A stretch of DNA of 53,428 nucleotides from an uncultured Desulfobacteraceae bacterium (GTDB lineage: Bacteria > Desulfobacterota > Desulfobacteria > Desulfobacterales > JAABSP01): positions 1 to 53,428 of the forward strand of contig CAYSLC010000009.1 in the NCBI GenBank assembly GCA_964431545.1, given 5' to 3'. Under the pieces are notes generated by a model. That model was not told the origin of the DNA, searched no databases, and worked only from the letters and a program-made list of their open reading frames with translations. Below are positions 46,184 through 53,428 of the stretch, in pieces (position 1 is the first letter of the stretch; every line of letters starts with the position of its first letter). The position numbers and the translations under genes were made by a program.

Positions 46184-47065
46184 CTACTCGATGTTCTGGA
46201 CCTGCTCCCGCATCTTTTCGAGTTCCGACTTGATGTCGACCACCCGGTGGGAGACGTCCGTATGGTTGGTTTTGGCCCCCATGGTGTTGAACTCCCGGTT
46301 GAACTCCTGGAGGAGAAAATTGAGTTTCCTTCCCGCCGCCTCTCCGCCCGCCATGAGGGCCCTGAACTGATTGAGGTGGCTGCGGGCCCGGACGATCTCC
46401 TCGGAGATGTCGCTTCGGTCGGCCAGGAAAGCCGCCTCCTGGGCGATCCGCCCTTCGTCGATCTCCACCATCCCCTGGGTCAGGGCGGTGACCCGCTCCT
46501 TGAGCCGGTCCCGATAGTGATCGAGCAGCCCCCCGGACGAGGCCTCGATGTCGTCGAGCCACGACGCGATGAGGGCGAGCCGCTCTCCGAAATCCGTCTC
46601 GATATGGGCCCCCTCCCGCTCCCGCATGGCCAACAGGCCCGTCAGGGCATCGGCCACGGCATCCCGGATCAGGGGCCAGGCCGCCTCCAGATCGTTCTCC
46701 GTCTCCGCCGGCTTGATGACCCCGCTGGCCCCGGCCACCATGGCCAGGGAGACGGGTTCGTCGATGTCGAGCATCCCCTTGAGGTCGAGCAGTGCCCGGT
46801 GGTAGGCGCCGGCCTTGATCTCGTCCACCTCGAAGGCGCACGCCTCCGCCGACTGGTTCCGGACCTGGAGTTTGAGTTCCACCCGGCCCCGGGTCACGCG
46901 CTCCGACACCAGGGACTTGATCCGCTCCTCCAGGGCCATATACCCCTGGGGGATCCGGAGCATCAGGTCGAGATGGCGGTTGTTGTAGGACCGGATCTCC
47001 ACGGCCACGGTCAAGCCGTTTTCGATCCGCTCGGCATTGGCGAAGGCGGTCATGCTGTGGATCAT
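46184..47065 (-). CDS. yicC: YicC/YloC family stress-induced protein (endoribonuclease YicC)
   Basis: 293 aa; N-terminal MIHSMTAFA and a YicC N-terminal domain plus DUF1732 C-terminal region. Confidence 0.85.
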   Translation of the reverse strand: MIHSMTAFANAERIENGLTVAVEIRSYNNRHLDLMLRIPQGYMALEERIKSLVSERVTRGRVELKLQVRNQSAEACAFEVDEIKAGAYHRALLDLKGMLDIDEPVSLAMVAGASGVIKPAETENDLEAAWPLIRDAVADALTGLLAMREREGAHIETDFGERLALIASWLDDIEASSGGLLDHYRDRLKERVTALTQGMVEIDEGRIAQEAAFLADRSDISEEIVRARSHLNQFRALMAGGEAAGRKLNFLLQEFNREFNTMGAKTNHTDVSHRVVDIKSELEKMREQVQNIE

Positions 47066-47601
47066 GGCGTTGGGTCCGTCCGTTTGAGGTCGATCAAATA
47101 CCGGTTCCGCACCGTCTCAAGGAGCGTCCGCATCCGCTCGGCGCCGTAATCGGGATAGGTCCACGGCAGGGTCCGGAAGCCGCCCCGCTCATAGATCAAA
47201 GTCAGATCTGCATAGATGCCGTCACCCACATAGATCCGGTGGGTGAAGTTCTTGCCCGTAGCCAGGACCAGGCGTTCCCGGGTCAGATAGCCGGGATCGA
47301 TGTTGACGGTCCGCCGGCCGCCCTCCATCAACCGCGACTCCACCTCGTTGGTGAACCGCTTGATCCGGGGCAGATCCCCCGGATCGACCAGCTGTTGGAA
47401 GCTTACGACCCGGCGAAAAAGCGGCCCCCCCATCTCCCCGGCATAGTAGTCGGTGTAGTCGAAGGCAAGCCACGGGGAGACCATGTCCGCCGGTCCGAAC
47501 CGCTGGGCCAGCTGTCGCGCCGCCTCGGAGATCCGATTTTTCCGGGCCGTGAAGATGCCCACCACCAGCTTGGCGGGATCCGGTGCCGCCGGGGTGCTCA
47601 C
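47062..47601 (-). CDS. DUF4416-like conserved hypothetical protein (179 aa)
   Basis: The ORF's stop overlaps the yicC start. Family assignment is from memory (KLVVGIF...IDPGYLT); homology not verified. Confidence 0.45.
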   Translation of the reverse strand: MSTPAAPDPAKLVVGIFTARKNRISEAARQLAQRFGPADMVSPWLAFDYTDYYAGEMGGPLFRRVVSFQQLVDPGDLPRIKRFTNEVESRLMEGGRRTVNIDPGYLTRERLVLATGKNFTHRIYVGDGIYADLTLIYERGGFRTLPWTYPDYGAERMRTLLETVRNRYLIDLKRTDPTP

Positions 47602-47733
47602 CGCCGTCTATCCCGGCCGGAATCGACCCGCCGAACCCTCATGCGCCGGGGCCGTCATCCGCTGGGAATCATGAGGGTGGCATCGAACGGCGGACGCATC
47701 GGGTGGATTCAGTCGGACACCGCGGCGGCACGC

Positions 47734-47913
47734 TTACGCGGATGCATCCAGCGGCTTCGCCTCGTCGATGAGCATGATGGGGATATCGTCCCGGATCTCA
47801 TAGACAAGGCGGCACTGTTCGCAGATGAGCCCGTCCTCCGACGGGGTAAGGTGGATATCCCCCTTGCACTTGGGGCACGCGAGTATCTCCAGTAACTCCT
47901 TGCTGATGGCCAT
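47734..47913 (-). CDS. Trm112 family protein (UPF0434/YcaR-like), 59 aa
   Basis: MAISKELLEILACPKCKGDIHLTPSEDGLICEQCRLVYEIRDDIPIMLIDEAKPLDASA carries the CPxC...C.xC zinc-ribbon signature of Trm112/YcaR. SD GAGGA 7 nt upstream. Not in the ORF track (<60 aa). Confidence 0.65.
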   Translation of the reverse strand: MAISKELLEILACPKCKGDIHLTPSEDGLICEQCRLVYEIRDDIPIMLIDEAKPLDASA

Positions 47914-48159
47914 TTCGTATCCTCAAGTTCCGATTCCTGGTCCCGCCCGACGGACGGCAACCGCATATTCCGGTTTTTATAACAGACAACCGGGAAGGTT
48001 GCCAAACAAAAAATCCGAGGATTTCCTGAAACTAAGGGTTTATTTTTTTCCCAAAATGGCGTACAGGAAATTTGCCTTGCATACCCCAGACCGGACCTTC
48101 GGGTTTCACACCCGATCCGTGCTCGAACCCCAAATGTCCATCCATGCCAAGGAGGTGCC

Positions 48160-48762
48160 GTGGTCGACTTTCTGGAAGCCTGCATCTCACCCATCACCCT
48201 CCCCTTCACTGCGCTGCTGGTGCTGGTGGTCCTCTACTGGTTGACCTTTATCCTGGGGGCCGTCGACATCGAGATGTTCGACGCCCTCGCCCCCGATGTG
48301 GACGGGGCCGAGGGGGGCTGCCTCCTCTCCCCGGTTCTCCAGCTGCTCAATATCGGCGATGTGCCGGTGATGGTCGTCCTCAGCGTCCTGGTGGTGAGCG
48401 GATGGTGGTTCTCCCTCATGGCCAACCACTACCTCAACCCGGACCAGGGGCTCGTTCTCGGGGTTCTGCTGCTTCTGCCGAACCTGGTCTTCTCCGTGGT
48501 GGTGACCAACTTGGTCACCCGTCCCCTGCGGCGGGTGTTCGCCCCGGAACGGCACGAGAAGGTCATGTTCCGGGTGGGCGAAGTGATCACCAGCCGGGTG
48601 ACCCCGGAGTTCGGCCAAATCCGGATCGACACCGACGGGGCCCCCATCGTCCTCAACGCGCGGACCCAGGGGGAGGTCCGCCTGGAGAAGGGGGACCGCG
48701 CGCTGATCTACGAGGAGGACCGGGACAAGGGGATCTACTTCGTGGAAAAGTACCAGGAATAA
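48160..48762 (+). CDS. NfeD/YqiJ-like membrane protein with C-terminal OB-fold (DUF1449-like)
   Basis: 200 aa; four predicted TM helices followed by a soluble beta-rich tail (MFRVGEVITSRV...IRIDTDGAPIVLNARTQGEVRLEKGDRALIYEE), typical of NfeD short homologues that partner SPFH proteins. Sits immediately upstream of flotillin. Confidence 0.6.
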   Translation: MVDFLEACISPITLPFTALLVLVVLYWLTFILGAVDIEMFDALAPDVDGAEGGCLLSPVLQLLNIGDVPVMVVLSVLVVSGWWFSLMANHYLNPDQGLVLGVLLLLPNLVFSVVVTNLVTRPLRRVFAPERHEKVMFRVGEVITSRVTPEFGQIRIDTDGAPIVLNARTQGEVRLEKGDRALIYEEDRDKGIYFVEKYQE

Positions 48763-48795
48763 TCTTCGGATAACGCCAATGTTAAGGAGGGGACC

Positions 48796-50922
48796 ATGTT
48801 CGGCTATTCAGTAGGGGCGGTGGTGGCCATCATCATCATCGCGGGTATCGGCTTTCTGGCCATGCTGGCCAAGTTCTACCGGAAGGTGGAGCAGGGGACG
48901 GCCCTGATCCGCAACGGCCTGGGCAAGACCCGGGTCGCCTTCACCGGCATCTTCGTCATCCCCATCGTCCACCGGATGGAGCTGATGGACATCACGGTGA
49001 AGCACCTCACCATCGACCGGCGGGGGTCCGAGGGGCTCATCTGCAAGGACAACATGCGGGCCGACATCAAGGTCGCCTTCTTCGTCCGGGTCAACAAGAC
49101 CCCCGAGGATGTCCTCAAGGTGGCCCAGTCCATCGGGTGCGTGCGGGCCTCCCACAACGAGGCCCTGCGGGAGCTGTTCGAGGCGAAGTTCTCCGAGGCC
49201 TTAAAGACCGTGGGCAAGCACTTCGACTTCGTGGATCTCTACAACTCCCGGGAGCAGTTCAAGGAACAGATCCTCCGGGTCATCGGCACCGATCTCAACG
49301 GGTTCGTGCTCGACGACGCGGCCATCGACTTCCTGGAACAGACGCCGGTGGAGAAGCTCGACGCCGACAACATCCTCGATTCCGAGGGGATCAAGAAGAT
49401 CACCGAACTGACGGCCAAGCAGCAGATCCTGGCCAACCAGCTCCGGCGGGAGCGGGAGAAGGTGATCACCCAGCAGGACGTGGACGGCAAGGAAGCGATC
49501 CTGGAACTCAACCGCCAGCTCACCGAGACCGAGGCCCGGCAGAAGCGGGAGGTGGAATCGGTCCAGGCGAGGGAGGAGGCCGAGACCGAGAAGATCCGCC
49601 AGGAGGAGCGCCTCAAGGCGGAAAACGCCAAGATCACCACCGACGAAGAGCTGAGCATCGCCTCGGAGAACCGGGACCGCCAGGTGGTGGTGGCCAAGAA
49701 GAACAAGGAGCGCACCGAGGCCATCGAGACCGAACGGGTCGAAAAGGACCGGCTCATCGAGGCGACCGAGCGGGAGCGGATCGTGGAGCTGGCCCGGATC
49801 GAGAAGGACAAGGCCCTGGAGGTGGAGCGGAAGAACATCCAGAACGTCATCCGGGACCGGGTGATGGTGGAAAAGACGGTGGTGGAGGAGCAGGAACGGA
49901 TCAAGGACACCCAGGCCTTCGCCGAGGCCGACCGGGAGAAGCGGGTGGCCCTGACCCAGGCGGAAAAAGAGGGCGAGGAGGCCATGACCCGGCAGTCCAA
50001 GGTGGCCGATGCCGCCCGGAAAGCGGCCGAGATCAAGGCCGAAGAGGAGATGTTCACAAGGCTCAAGGCGGCGGAGGCCTCCCGGAAGGCGGCCGAACTC
50101 AAGGCCGAGGAGACGGTGGTGGAGGCCGAGGCCTTCCAGAAGTCGGCGGTCCAGAAATCCGAGGGGCAGAAGCTGCTGGCCGAGGGCGAGGCCGCCGAGC
50201 TGGCCGCCGCCGGCATCGCCGAGGCCCGGGTGGAGCGGGAGAAGAACGAACTGATCGAACAGAAAGGGACCGCCGAGATCAAGGTCCTGGAACTCCGGCT
50301 GACGGCCGAAGCCAAGGGCATCGACAACAAAGGGGCGGCCGAGGCCAAGGCCATGGAACTCAAACTCATGTCCGAGGCCAAGGGGATCGAAAGCAAGGCC
50401 AACGCCATGAAGCTCCTGGACGCCGTGGGCCGGGAGCACGAGGAGTTCAAGCTGGAGCTGGAGAAGGAAAAGGAGGTGGCCCTGGCCCGCATGGGCATGG
50501 ACCGGGATGTGGCCAAGAGCCAGGCCGAGATCCTGGGCAGCTTCCTGCGCTACGCCAAGATCGACATCGTGGGCGGGGAATCGGCCTTCTTCGACCGGGT
50601 GATGAACGCCGTCTCCACCGGCAAGACCGTGGACCGGTACATGGACAGCAGCCGAACCCTCAAGGACGTGAAGGAGACCTTCTTCAACGCCGATCCGGAG
50701 TATTTCCAGTCCCAGCTCAAACGGTTCATGACCCAGTTCGGCGTCGGCATCGAGGATGTGAAGAACCTCACGGTCTCCGCGGCCCTGGCCAAGATGATCG
50801 CCCTGGCCCAAAGTTCCGAACAGCGGGGGGACCTCTACGGCCTCATGGCCGTGGCCGAGCGGGCCGGCATCGCCGACCGGCTCCTCAACCTCAAAGGCGC
50901 GGACGCCGGGGAAAAGGAGTAG
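48796..50922 (+). CDS. flotillin-family SPFH/band-7 protein (YqiK/FloT-like)
   Basis: 708 aa; N-terminal membrane hairpin, SPFH domain (GTALIRNGLGKTRVAFTGIFVIPIVHRMELMDITVKHLTI), and a long Glu/Ala/Lys/Arg-rich coiled-coil flotillin domain. Confidence 0.85.
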   Translation: MFGYSVGAVVAIIIIAGIGFLAMLAKFYRKVEQGTALIRNGLGKTRVAFTGIFVIPIVHRMELMDITVKHLTIDRRGSEGLICKDNMRADIKVAFFVRVNKTPEDVLKVAQSIGCVRASHNEALRELFEAKFSEALKTVGKHFDFVDLYNSREQFKEQILRVIGTDLNGFVLDDAAIDFLEQTPVEKLDADNILDSEGIKKITELTAKQQILANQLRREREKVITQQDVDGKEAILELNRQLTETEARQKREVESVQAREEAETEKIRQEERLKAENAKITTDEELSIASENRDRQVVVAKKNKERTEAIETERVEKDRLIEATERERIVELARIEKDKALEVERKNIQNVIRDRVMVEKTVVEEQERIKDTQAFAEADREKRVALTQAEKEGEEAMTRQSKVADAARKAAEIKAEEEMFTRLKAAEASRKAAELKAEETVVEAEAFQKSAVQKSEGQKLLAEGEAAELAAAGIAEARVEREKNELIEQKGTAEIKVLELRLTAEAKGIDNKGAAEAKAMELKLMSEAKGIESKANAMKLLDAVGREHEEFKLELEKEKEVALARMGMDRDVAKSQAEILGSFLRYAKIDIVGGESAFFDRVMNAVSTGKTVDRYMDSSRTLKDVKETFFNADPEYFQSQLKRFMTQFGVGIEDVKNLTVSAALAKMIALAQSSEQRGDLYGLMAVAERAGIADRLLNLKGADAGEKE

Positions 50923-50928
50923 GATCCC

Positions 50929-53428
50929 ATGGCCCATCCGGAAGAGACGCAAAGCCCCGAACGGGGCGAGGTGGCCCTGGAGGGGGGGACCTACGAGATC
51001 ATCCGGAACCGCCTCACGGCAAAGGGCCGGGAGCTGCGGTCCCGGATGGACCGGCTCAACGAGAACCGGAAGGCGGTCTTCGGTTCCGTCGACTTCGGCC
51101 TCCGGAGCACCGATCGAATCTCCACCCAAAACAACTGCATGCCCCGGGACATGGTCTCCCTGGACGGGTCCCGGTTCCTCTTCGGGTACAACGTCCACAT
51201 GGGTCTCAAATCGGAGACCGGGCTGTCGGACGTCTTTTCCGCCTACGAGTACCGGGAGGAGACCTTCCACGAGATCCCCGCCGAGATGTTGGCGGACGAG
51301 CGGTTCCGGAAGGACTTCCAGAGCCTCTACAAGTACTACCGGGAGACCCGGTTCGTCAAGTTCTCGGTGATCGGACCCCATCTGTTCATGGTCTTCCGGG
51401 TGGGCAAATCGGCCGCCGACATCAAGACGTTCAAGTGGCGCCTGGAGGACGGGGTCCTCCGGTACGTGGACAACCGGAGCGACCACGAATACACGTTCCC
51501 GCCCCAGCACGGGTACACCTGGACCCGGACCCACCGGGACCTCCACCGGTTCGGGAAGTTCCCCCACATCTCCATCGAGGACCGCCTCTTCGTGGAGGCG
51601 GTGGGCGGCGACATCACCTTCAAGGTGGAAGACAACACGGACAGCGGCCACGGCATCTACGCCGAGCCGGTGGACAATCCGGACCAGACCCTCGACGACG
51701 CCGAGATCTTCTACGCGGCCCTGGGCCACATCATCCTGGTACGGATCAAGCCCTACCTGGAGGAATCCTTCCGGTACTTCATCTTCAACGAGAAGACCCG
51801 GGAGGTCCACCGGGTGGACGCCATCGCCGACGCCTGCGTGCGGCTGCCGGATGATCAGGGATTGATCTTCTCCAACGGCTACTACCTGGCCTCGGGCGAA
51901 CTCAAGCAGTACGAGTCGGGCCTCACCGGCATGGTCTTTGAGAACAAGGTCCCCTCGGCCAACGGGGAGGACTTCCTCTACGCCTTCCACCAGCCCGAAT
52001 CGGGGGACTACGTGCTCTTCTCCTACAACATCGTGGAACAAAAGGTGGACAACCCGGTGCCCTGCAACGGGTATTCGCTGTTCGACAGCGGGGAGATGCT
52101 CCTGTTCAAGGCCAGCTACGAGCCGGCCCGCCACCACGTGGTCCAGGTCTGGGAGACCCCCTACATGTCCACCGACTACGCCCTGTCGACCAAGACCGAC
52201 CACGGCGACTCGTTCCTCTACAAGATCGGCAACCCGCCCATCGTCCGGTGCATGGCCGAGTGCAACGAACTCCTCAAGCTCATCGGCCGGGAGGAGGTCT
52301 ACGCCGGGCTCTACGTGGATCTGGCCAAGAAGGCCGGAAACATCGCCGACGCCTACTTCTGGATCGACCGGCCCGAGACGGGAAATCTCAAGGAGGTGCT
52401 CCTGGAGATCCGGGCGGCCGCCGTGGGGGCGGTGGACGAGTTCGAGAAGGTGGTCCGGCTCAAAAAACATACCGCCGCCGAAGTGGCCCGGGTCCGGGAC
52501 CGGAGCGGGGAGATCCTGGAGGCGGCCCGGACCCGGACCATGGACCGCATCGACCGGTTCGTGGAGACCCTCTCCGAGCTGCGGGGGGTCCGGGGCGAGA
52601 TCATCTCCCTGAAGGAGCTGCGGTATGTGGATTTGGAGGCCGTGGCGGCGCTGGAAGAGGAGGTGGTCTCGGCCACCGAGGACCTCTCCGAGCGGTGCGT
52701 CCGTTTCCTGCTCACCCCCGAGGCCCTGGACCCATACGAGGCCCGGGTCTCGGAGATCCAGGAGCGGATCGACGACCTGACCAAGACGGCCGATGCCGAC
52801 CGGCTGGGGGAGGAGGTGGACGCGGCCTCCGCCGGTCTGGAGATGCTCATCGACATCGTCTCCAATCTCAGAATCGAGGATCCCACCCAGACCACGCGGA
52901 TCATCGACGCCGTCTCGGAGATCTACTCCCGGATCAACACCGTCAAGGCGGCTCTGAAGACCAAACGGAAGAATCTCCAGAGCACCGAGGGGATCGCCGA
53001 GTTCAACGCCCAGATGAAGCTCCTCAACCAGAGCGTGGTCAATTACCTGGACATCGCCGACACCCCGGAGAAGTGCGAGGAGTATCTCACCAAGGTCATG
53101 GTGGCGGTGGAGGAGCTGGAGGGGCGGTTCTCCGACTTCGATGAATTCATCGTGGAACTTTCGGAAAAGCGGGACGAACTCTACAACGCCTTCGAGACCC
53201 GGAAGCTCGCCCTGGTGGAGGCCCGGAACCGGCGGGCCACCGCCCTGATGAGCGCGGCGGAGCGGATCCTGAAAGGGGTGCGGAACCGGGCATCGGCCAT
53301 GGCCGACGTGGACGCCATCAACGCCTACTTCGCCTCGGACCTGATGATCGAGAAGATCCGGAACATCGTGGAACAGCTCCTGGAACTGGACGACACGGTG
53401 AAGGCCGATGACATCCAGTCCCGGCTCA
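50929..53428 (+). CDS. large uncharacterised protein (>833 aa, 3' truncated by the window edge), co-operonic with flotillin
   Basis: ATG at 50929, 6 nt after the flotillin stop, with SD AAAAGGAG. Continuous ORF to the window end, hidden in the track by a longer GC shadow ORF. N-terminal ~470 aa is beta-rich (FKVEDNTDSGHGIYAEP, LFSYNIVEQKVDNPVPCNGYSLFDSGEMLLF); C-terminal >350 aa is helical/coiled-coil. No Walker motifs or other signatures found. Confidence 0.6.
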   Translation, partial: MAHPEETQSPERGEVALEGGTYEIIRNRLTAKGRELRSRMDRLNENRKAVFGSVDFGLRSTDRISTQNNCMPRDMVSLDGSRFLFGYNVHMGLKSETGLSDVFSAYEYREETFHEIPAEMLADERFRKDFQSLYKYYRETRFVKFSVIGPHLFMVFRVGKSAADIKTFKWRLEDGVLRYVDNRSDHEYTFPPQHGYTWTRTHRDLHRFGKFPHISIEDRLFVEAVGGDITFKVEDNTDSGHGIYAEPVDNPDQTLDDAEIFYAALGHIILVRIKPYLEESFRYFIFNEKTREVHRVDAIADACVRLPDDQGLIFSNGYYLASGELKQYESGLTGMVFENKVPSANGEDFLYAFHQPESGDYVLFSYNIVEQKVDNPVPCNGYSLFDSGEMLLFKASYEPARHHVVQVWETPYMSTDYALSTKTDHGDSFLYKIGNPPIVRCMAECNELLKLIGREEVYAGLYVDLAKKAGNIADAYFWIDRPETGNLKEVLLEIRAAAVGAVDEFEKVVRLKKHTAAEVARVRDRSGEILEAARTRTMDRIDRFVETLSELRGVRGEIISLKELRYVDLEAVAALEEEVVSATEDLSERCVRFLLTPEALDPYEARVSEIQERIDDLTKTADADRLGEEVDAASAGLEMLIDIVSNLRIEDPTQTTRIIDAVSEIYSRINTVKAALKTKRKNLQSTEGIAEFNAQMKLLNQSVVNYLDIADTPEKCEEYLTKVMVAVEELEGRFSDFDEFIVELSEKRDELYNAFETRKLALVEARNRRATALMSAAERILKGVRNRASAMADVDAINAYFASDLMIEKIRNIVEQLLELDDTVKADDIQSRL

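Follow-up and report, generated by a model that had tools for sequence, protein, structure and literature searches.

Bacterial flotillins are widely invoked as scaffolds of membrane microdomains, and both their mechanism and their molecular function are debated. SPFH assemblies can be coupled genetically or physically to an AAA+ hexamer at the membrane, as in HflK/C–FtsH and prohibitin–m-AAA. Here we analyse an operon in which a flotillin gene directly precedes the gene for a giant, predicted AAA+ ATPase. It lies at the end of a 53,428-nt stretch of DNA (hereafter the window) from an uncultured Desulfobacteraceae bacterium (NCBI GenBank assembly GCA_964431545.1, contig CAYSLC010000009.1), where three co-directional genes on the plus strand encode a YqiJ-like membrane protein, a flotillin and the first 833 residues of the ATPase.

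The first two genes have described counterparts in Escherichia coli yqiJ–yqiK and Bacillus subtilis yuaF–floT, which are NfeD–flotillin SPFH2 operons (Hinderhofer et al. 2009, PMC2636767); the window genes are homologous to them and stand in the same order. Unlike the window operon, E. coli yqiJ–yqiK has no ATPase gene downstream, its place being taken by sibD/ibsD. The full set of genes has been described once. In a computational study, Ravi et al. 2024 (mSystems, PMC11237479; preprint 2020) reported a CesT/Tir–PspA operon combined with three further genes, encoding a YqiJ/YuaF protein, a transmembrane–band-7–coiled-coil–flotillin protein and a beta-propeller/coiled-coil/AAA+ protein. They framed this operon within phage-shock protein (PSP) neighbourhoods, suggested ATP-dependent membrane remodelling, reported that abbreviated operons without PspA are widespread, and tabulated the neighbourhood of Dokdonia donghaensis ANH61663.1 in the same gene order. 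Domain architectures and gene order are shared with the window, whose operon is the abbreviated form because it lacks CesT/Tir–PspA, and the Bacteroidota loci of our own survey reproduce the full version (divergent cHTH gene, CesT/Tir, PspA, YqiJ, flotillin, ATPase).

The operon type was thus already known computationally, and the truncated gene in the window adds little by itself. An initial annotation of this DNA, made from the sequence alone, had presented the third gene as an undescribed partner of the NfeD–flotillin pair, which the study of Ravi et al. 2024 contradicts for both the operon and its abbreviated form. That the partner is experimentally uncharacterised holds: the literature searched contains no experimental study of the operon and no mention of DUF3686 or PF12458, the Pfam family of the ATPase, and searches on flotillin together with NfeD, AAA and propeller pointed to Ravi et al. 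2024 alone. A survey of ESCRT systems (PMC10936438) names SPFH proteins only in archaeal adaptin-like systems and does not mention a flotillin–ATPase operon. For the ATPase, Ravi et al. 2024 give no Pfam name, clade or linkage statistics; the additions here are its Pfam identity (DUF3686 and DUF7902), the assignment of its motor to the MoxR class and a quantitative linkage in both directions.

Reciprocal linkage of flotillin and ATPase genes

Among 185,579 species genomes scanned, more than 568 relatives of the ATPase were found, and 80 loci were kept. Genome loci were taken as informative when at least 3.3 kb of sequence lay upstream of the ATPase gene (n = 61). Starting from the ATPase, a flotillin gene is found upstream on the same strand in 57 of these 61 loci, accompanied by yqiJ in 56. 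The reciprocal scan started from the flotillin subfamily in metagenomes and counted loci with enough downstream sequence: the DUF3686 ATPase gene follows in 58/60, and yqiJ precedes the flotillin in 66/69. The three-gene linkage is therefore near-obligate both ways (93–97% reciprocal), and this recurrence of one gene order on one strand is far beyond chance. The tight coupling to the NfeD–flotillin pair proposed in the initial annotation is borne out by these counts.

The adjacency is kept across phyla and is not confined to one lineage. Loci come from Desulfobacterota, Planctomycetota, Verrucomicrobiota, Bacteroidota, Acidobacteriota, Gemmatimonadota, Calditrichia, Omnitrophota and Hydrogenedentota, and the names of homologues add Myxococcota and Thermodesulfovibrionia; the module spans about ten phyla. 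Cultured carriers of the module include Sulfidibacter corallicola, Hymenobacter, Rufibacter, Pontibacter and Gimesia. The order persists in two relatives whose ATPases are only 28–29% identical to that of the window: a gene of about 205–212 aa is followed by one for a flotillin homologue of 647–673 aa, which carries a Band_7 record in one relative, and then by the ATPase. The family itself is of modest size: at 50% identity and E ≤ 1e-30 it makes up 366 clusters in a set of 1.84 billion representatives. When the 982 open reading frames (ORFs) of the 80 loci were clustered, yqiJ, flotillin and the ATPase were the only broadly conserved gene families, and neither a conserved fourth gene nor a VWA partner was found.

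The loci also vary in several ways. Lineage-specific small ORFs, spanning 1–2.4 kb, separate the flotillin and ATPase genes in seven of them (L058 7658–9952, L061 8219–9997, L063 7623–9982, L003 7956–9442, and L066, L072 and L078), so that tight coupling is not universal; some of the inserted ORFs begin with hydrophobic, signal-peptide- or transmembrane-like N termini, and those in L003 are unrelated small genes. Two loci carry an extra N-terminal flotillin fragment of 183–197 aa just upstream of the full-length flotillin (L025 2451–3044, L079 6987–7538), either a partial duplication or a pseudogene. In the two relatives at 28–29% identity, a gene for TelA (PF05816, toxic-anion resistance) adjoins the ATPase gene (L162 11502–12608, minus strand; L164 11001–12221, plus strand), and TelA may be a further stress-related partner in this distant branch.

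Bacteroidota loci show an extended form, in which yqiJ is preceded by genes for CesT_Tir_1 (E = 3.5e-51), PspA_IM30 (E = 3.5e-36) and a divergent HTH regulator (L063 1965–4455; also L033, L041, L050, L058, L061, L069, L072, L073 and L078). Here the three genes directly follow CesT/Tir–PspA, as would be expected if the ATPase disassembled PspA/ESCRT-III polymers in the manner of Vps4, with flotillin and YqiJ serving only to recruit and the module forming a branch of the phage-shock response. The placement in PSP neighbourhoods and the membrane remodelling suggested by Ravi et al. 2024 (PMC11237479) point the same way, and the SPFH protein YdjI of B. subtilis reportedly recruits PspA (PMC8581546). 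However, PspA is adjacent in only about 12 of the 80 loci, all of them from Bacteroidota, and the 53-kb window has no PspA-like gene. Further, the invariably linked partner is flotillin, not PspA, and the motor of the homologues, described below, is of the MoxR class rather than of the classical clade that holds Vps4, with no MIT domain. We consider this explanation unlikely.

Predicted architecture of the three proteins

Although the initial annotation could not place the third protein in any described family, Pfam DUF3686 matches it over the full length of the model (E = 7.2e-183, residues 35–477), DUF7902 matches farther along the chain (Table 1), and homologues in public databases bear the names 'DNA repair ATPase' (NCBI) or 'AAA family ATPase'. 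The first of these names, together with the Pfam description of DUF3686 as an 'ATPase involved in DNA repair', would imply a repair enzyme whose adjacency to flotillin is conserved yet functionally unrelated. Homologues of the ATPase do give weak Pfam matches to RuvB_N, and RuvB is among the Foldseek matches of the motor, but no domain or context supports a role in repair. We regard this possibility as extremely improbable and the database name as being without support.

Visible residues of the window protein correspond to residues 1–833 of its homologues, at up to 65% identity. An AlphaFold 2 (AF2) model of this part, built from a 121-sequence alignment, has a predicted local distance difference test (pLDDT) score of 90.7 and agrees with the initial annotation, which had divided the protein into a beta-rich N-terminal and a helical C-terminal half: a long helix is followed by a beta-propeller, the core of DUF3686, and then by an all-helical arm (Table 1), which reaches approximately residue 1200 in full-length homologues, past the end of the window. 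Foldseek searches of this model against the PDB return generic propellers (DCAF1 WD40, IFT-A, clathrin; E about 1e-6, low TM-scores); these generic propeller and propeller–solenoid matches give no functional lead for the N-terminal part. The initial annotation had also scanned for sequence signatures. Its report of no HExxH motif and no transmembrane segment stands for the visible 833 residues, which lack a Walker A motif as well; its report of no DxD does not, as three trivial DxD strings are present.

The conclusion that the protein has no P-loop, by contrast, was an artefact of truncation. The visible part lacks one because, judging from homologues, the window stops some 450 residues short of the motor. 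The 70 complete ATPase genes within the 80 loci encode 1,620–1,906 residues, and a single AAA+ module occupies roughly residues 1290–1440, with PF00004/AAA_5 matches in 4/4 full-length homologues scanned; the module is also found in the alignment of the 70 sequences. Its motifs are invariant (Walker A SPPGYGKTT, Walker B-like LDDIQH, and a sensor/arginine region AGNP...NRAD), and the domain has a mean column identity of 77% across phyla.

To place this motor among AAA+ proteins, we used an AF2 model of the 686-residue C-terminal fragment of a Desulfobacterales homologue (P0123), whose pLDDT is 77.9 for the whole model and exceeds 90 in most of the ATPase core. Foldseek against the PDB returns RuvB, NorQ, CbbQ and Clp proteins, NorQ and CbbQ being the best structural matches, and JGI annotates fragments of the ATPase as 'MoxR-like ATPase'. 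The motor in the homologues is a MoxR-class AAA+ domain, its fold being closest to MoxR members. A Cdc48-like motor was considered and rejected: matches to p97 sequences in the PDB are confined to a stretch of about 40 residues that surrounds the P-loop. Nor is the classical AAA clade (Cdc48/FtsH/Vps4) the best match in structure and sequence over the whole domain.

The likeness to NorQ and CbbQ raises a further explanation, namely that the ATPase acts as a maturation chaperone of the MoxR type for cofactor insertion or membrane enzyme assembly, in the manner of NorQ/NorD and CbbQ/CbbO, and that flotillin only concentrates its client. The structural matches and the JGI label favour it. CbbQ (with CbbO) and NorQ (with NorD) are, however, stand-alone rings of about 260 aa that need a separate VWA/MIDAS adaptor, whereas here about 1,250 residues of propeller and arm precede the ATPase module in one fused chain, and the module's sequence similarity to CbbQ/NorQ is limited to the P-loop region. 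Neither a VWA/MIDAS partner nor a gene for a candidate client enzyme is conserved in the neighbourhood, where YqiJ and flotillin alone are invariant partners. We find the chaperone explanation quite improbable and, because of the missing VWA/MIDAS partner, do not file the ATPase as a canonical MoxR system.

Beyond the motor, the extreme C terminus varies, with TPR repeats in Desulfobacterales (L003 residues 1758–1817), ankyrin repeats in one metagenomic homologue (P0125) and neither in Bacteroidota; this variation suggests lineage-specific adaptor modules. No protease domain is detectable in the ATPase. Taken together, the full protein is predicted to be a soluble chain of about 1,850 aa that comprises a helix, a propeller of about seven blades (DUF3686), an arm of some 800 residues that contains DUF7902, a single MoxR-class AAA+ domain and a tail that varies (TPR or ankyrin).

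The first two genes were identified as a classic NfeD–flotillin pair of the YqiJ–YqiK type in the initial annotation, and profile comparisons agree. The family profile of the 200-aa YqiJ-like protein matches E. coli YqiJ (hhalign 97.1%, E = 6.9e-11) in an alignment that runs on through the C-terminal domain. By hydropathy the protein has 3–4 N-terminal transmembrane segments followed by a soluble C-terminal domain. Pfam YqiJ_N falls below cutoff on the window protein (E = 8e-4) and matches 23 of its 28 orthologues (best E = 3.6e-8); the Pfam model NfeD, for the C-terminal OB-fold domain, matches weakly in 5/28, and the match of the family profile to the YuaF structure 2k14 is weak (E = 0.079). 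Gene 1 is accordingly best read, at the level of sequence, as a YqiJ/YuaF-type short NfeD membrane protein (DUF1449).

The 708-aa flotillin has a predicted architecture of one N-terminal transmembrane segment (residues 1–29, the only one by hydropathy), an SPFH domain, long Glu/Ala-rich helices and a conserved C-terminal region. BLASTP of the window protein against E. coli YqiK gives E = 1e-39 at 27% identity over 462 aa that include the SPFH domain, and the orthologue profile gives hhalign 99.95% (E = 1.7e-38). Residues 3–190 align with the SPFH region of YqiK, and the alignment extends through the Glu/Ala-rich helices to about residue 430–460; the window flotillin exceeds YqiK by 155 aa in length, and its residues past about 460 are unaligned. 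Domain models recover none of this. Pfam Band_7 has no match at E < 1 in the window flotillin or its 29 orthologues (30/30 sequences), Pfam and NCBIfam return nothing credible on the window flotillin, a PDB sequence search with this single sequence returns no match, and the profile matches only the helical region of QmcA in the PDB, weakly. Because these searches were uninformative, the identity of the flotillin was set through the E. coli yqiJ–yqiK locus, and gene 2 encodes a YqiK/FloT-type flotillin of a distinct, divergent subfamily. As the Band_7 model does not see this subfamily, domain-based surveys of SPFH proteins could miss it.

Operon layout and genomic context

The ORF positions, the 6-nt gap before the third gene and its Shine–Dalgarno (SD) sequence are as the initial annotation placed them, and the third frame is uninterrupted through 833 codons up to the window end (Table 1). 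The SD of the ATPase gene (AAGGAG, 50914–50919) lies inside the 3′ end of the flotillin gene, the gap between the yqiJ-like and flotillin genes is 33 nt, and no terminator-like hairpin was found on the plus strand between the three genes. All three ORFs are genuine genes by codon-position GC, with 0.90–0.93 at third positions (GC3) against 0.34–0.37 at second positions (GC2). Two very long ORFs in other frames, of 1,089 aa (49201–52470, minus strand) and 905 aa (49137–51854, plus strand), overlap the flotillin and ATPase genes; as GC3 speaks for the annotated frames, they are shadow ORFs of high-GC sequence rather than genes.

Table 1. Features of the window operon, with positions in the 53,428-nt window
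Feature	Position	Strand	Details
Upstream intergenic region	47914–48159	+	presumed promoter region
yqiJ-like gene	48160–48762	+	GTG start; 200 aa; SD AAGGAGG 48149–48155
Flotillin gene	48796–50922	+	ATG start; TAG 50920–50922; 708 aa; SD AAGGAGG 48784–48790
ATPase gene, 5′ 45%	50929–53428	+	ATG start; 833 of about 1,850 codons; cut by window end
N-terminal long helix	50983–51081	+	residues 19–51, before propeller; AF2 pLDDT about 90–98
Beta-propeller	51097–52155	+	residues 57–409; about 27–28 strands, roughly seven blades; core of DUF3686; AF2
Helical arm	52195–53427	+	residues 423–833; long antiparallel helices; AF2
DUF7902 (PF25472)	52720–52974	+	residues 598–682, within helical arm; Pfam E = 1.5e-28

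We infer a promoter upstream of the yqiJ-like gene and presume it to lie in the intergenic region because the neighbouring Trm112-like gene (47734–47913) is on the minus strand; a promoter scan found no match to the sigma-70 consensus upstream of the operon and is uninformative. Where the full version has its CesT/Tir–PspA dyad, the window has three genes on the opposite strand (46184–47913), which by ORF map and Pfam encode a YicC-like endoribonuclease, a DUF4416 protein and the Trm112-like protein. Farther upstream lie guanylate kinase and isocitrate dehydrogenase genes, an ordinary housekeeping context, and no mobile-element or defence signatures were found in the upstream context of the operon.

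This context bears on a possible role in anti-phage defence or abortive infection, in which an SPFH scaffold would hold the ATPase as an effector. SPFH proteins and large multidomain ATPases do occur in some defence systems, and the initial annotation had mentioned defence effectors among the proteins that SPFH modules recruit. Yet none of the three proteins has a PADLOC match, no nuclease or toxin domain is present, and the column identity of the ATPase domain across phyla is unlike that of fast-evolving defence genes. With no PADLOC matches and a housekeeping neighbourhood, we rejected a defence system, which we judge very improbable.

A candidate flotillin-coupled remodeller

We favour a reading in which the third gene encodes a flotillin-coupled AAA+ remodeller for envelope stress, and estimate a probability of roughly 70% for the identity, the architecture and this general role taken jointly. 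The module lies recurrently close to envelope-stress genes, PspA in Bacteroidota and TelA in the distant branch. In the mechanism we propose, an SPFH scaffold made of YqiJ and flotillin would form at the inner membrane, on its cytoplasmic side, and the ATPase would be co-expressed from the same transcript, as the 6-nt gap and the SD inside the flotillin gene suggest. The soluble ATPase would dock on the scaffold through its propeller and helical arm, and its AAA+ ring would remodel a client by ATP hydrolysis. The likeliest clients may be the flotillin assembly itself, membrane-repair or stress complexes of the PspA/ESCRT-III type, or damaged membrane proteins gathered in the microdomain; any specific choice among these is doubtful.

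Such a protein would be a MoxR-type motor with its adaptor fused in cis, in place of a VWA partner, and would parallel HflK/C–FtsH and prohibitin–m-AAA, with which the window operon shares the logic of pairing an SPFH protein with an AAA+ protein. The parallel has limits: FtsH is a membrane-anchored AAA protein of the classical clade with an M41 protease domain, whereas the ATPase here is predicted to be soluble, is of the MoxR class and has no detectable protease domain.

Several observations weigh against the remodeller reading. First, 4 of the 61 genome loci (L001, L017, L039 and L062) hold solo ATPase genes with no flotillin within 10 kb. Second, the window contains no PspA-like gene, and a VWA partner, typical for known MoxR ATPases, is not conserved with the module. 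Third, the AAA+ domain of the window gene would lie off-window, its presence being extrapolated from homologues. Fourth, the expected pore-loop segment reads NGPAIGHxVTSLDP, which is non-canonical in having no aromatic residue and makes classical substrate threading uncertain. Finally, we infer both docking on flotillin and the nature of the client from gene order. One of the solo loci, L001 (3450–9607), holds the closest genome homologue, at 65% identity in a Desulfobacteraceae metagenome-assembled genome, and has neither flotillin nor yqiJ within 10 kb; it looks rearranged, because small unrelated ORFs occupy the region upstream of the ATPase. Overall, the interpretation in the initial annotation is partly supported.

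Conservation of the module bears on how flotillins work. This flotillin subfamily occurs almost never without an AAA+ protein of 1,600–1,900 residues, which offers a tractable handle on flotillin function: the genetics involve three genes and are simple, the Walker mutants are obvious, and cultured strains carry the module. A stronger and more tentative proposal, which we put forward as a possibility to which we give less than even odds, is that the flotillin subfamily and the giant MoxR-type ATPase work as a single obligate machine, in which a dedicated ATP motor would drive the assembly, the opening or the cargo of an SPFH cage. If this is true, it would be the first flotillin with its own energy-consuming remodeller, and would give flotillins a directly testable biochemical activity.

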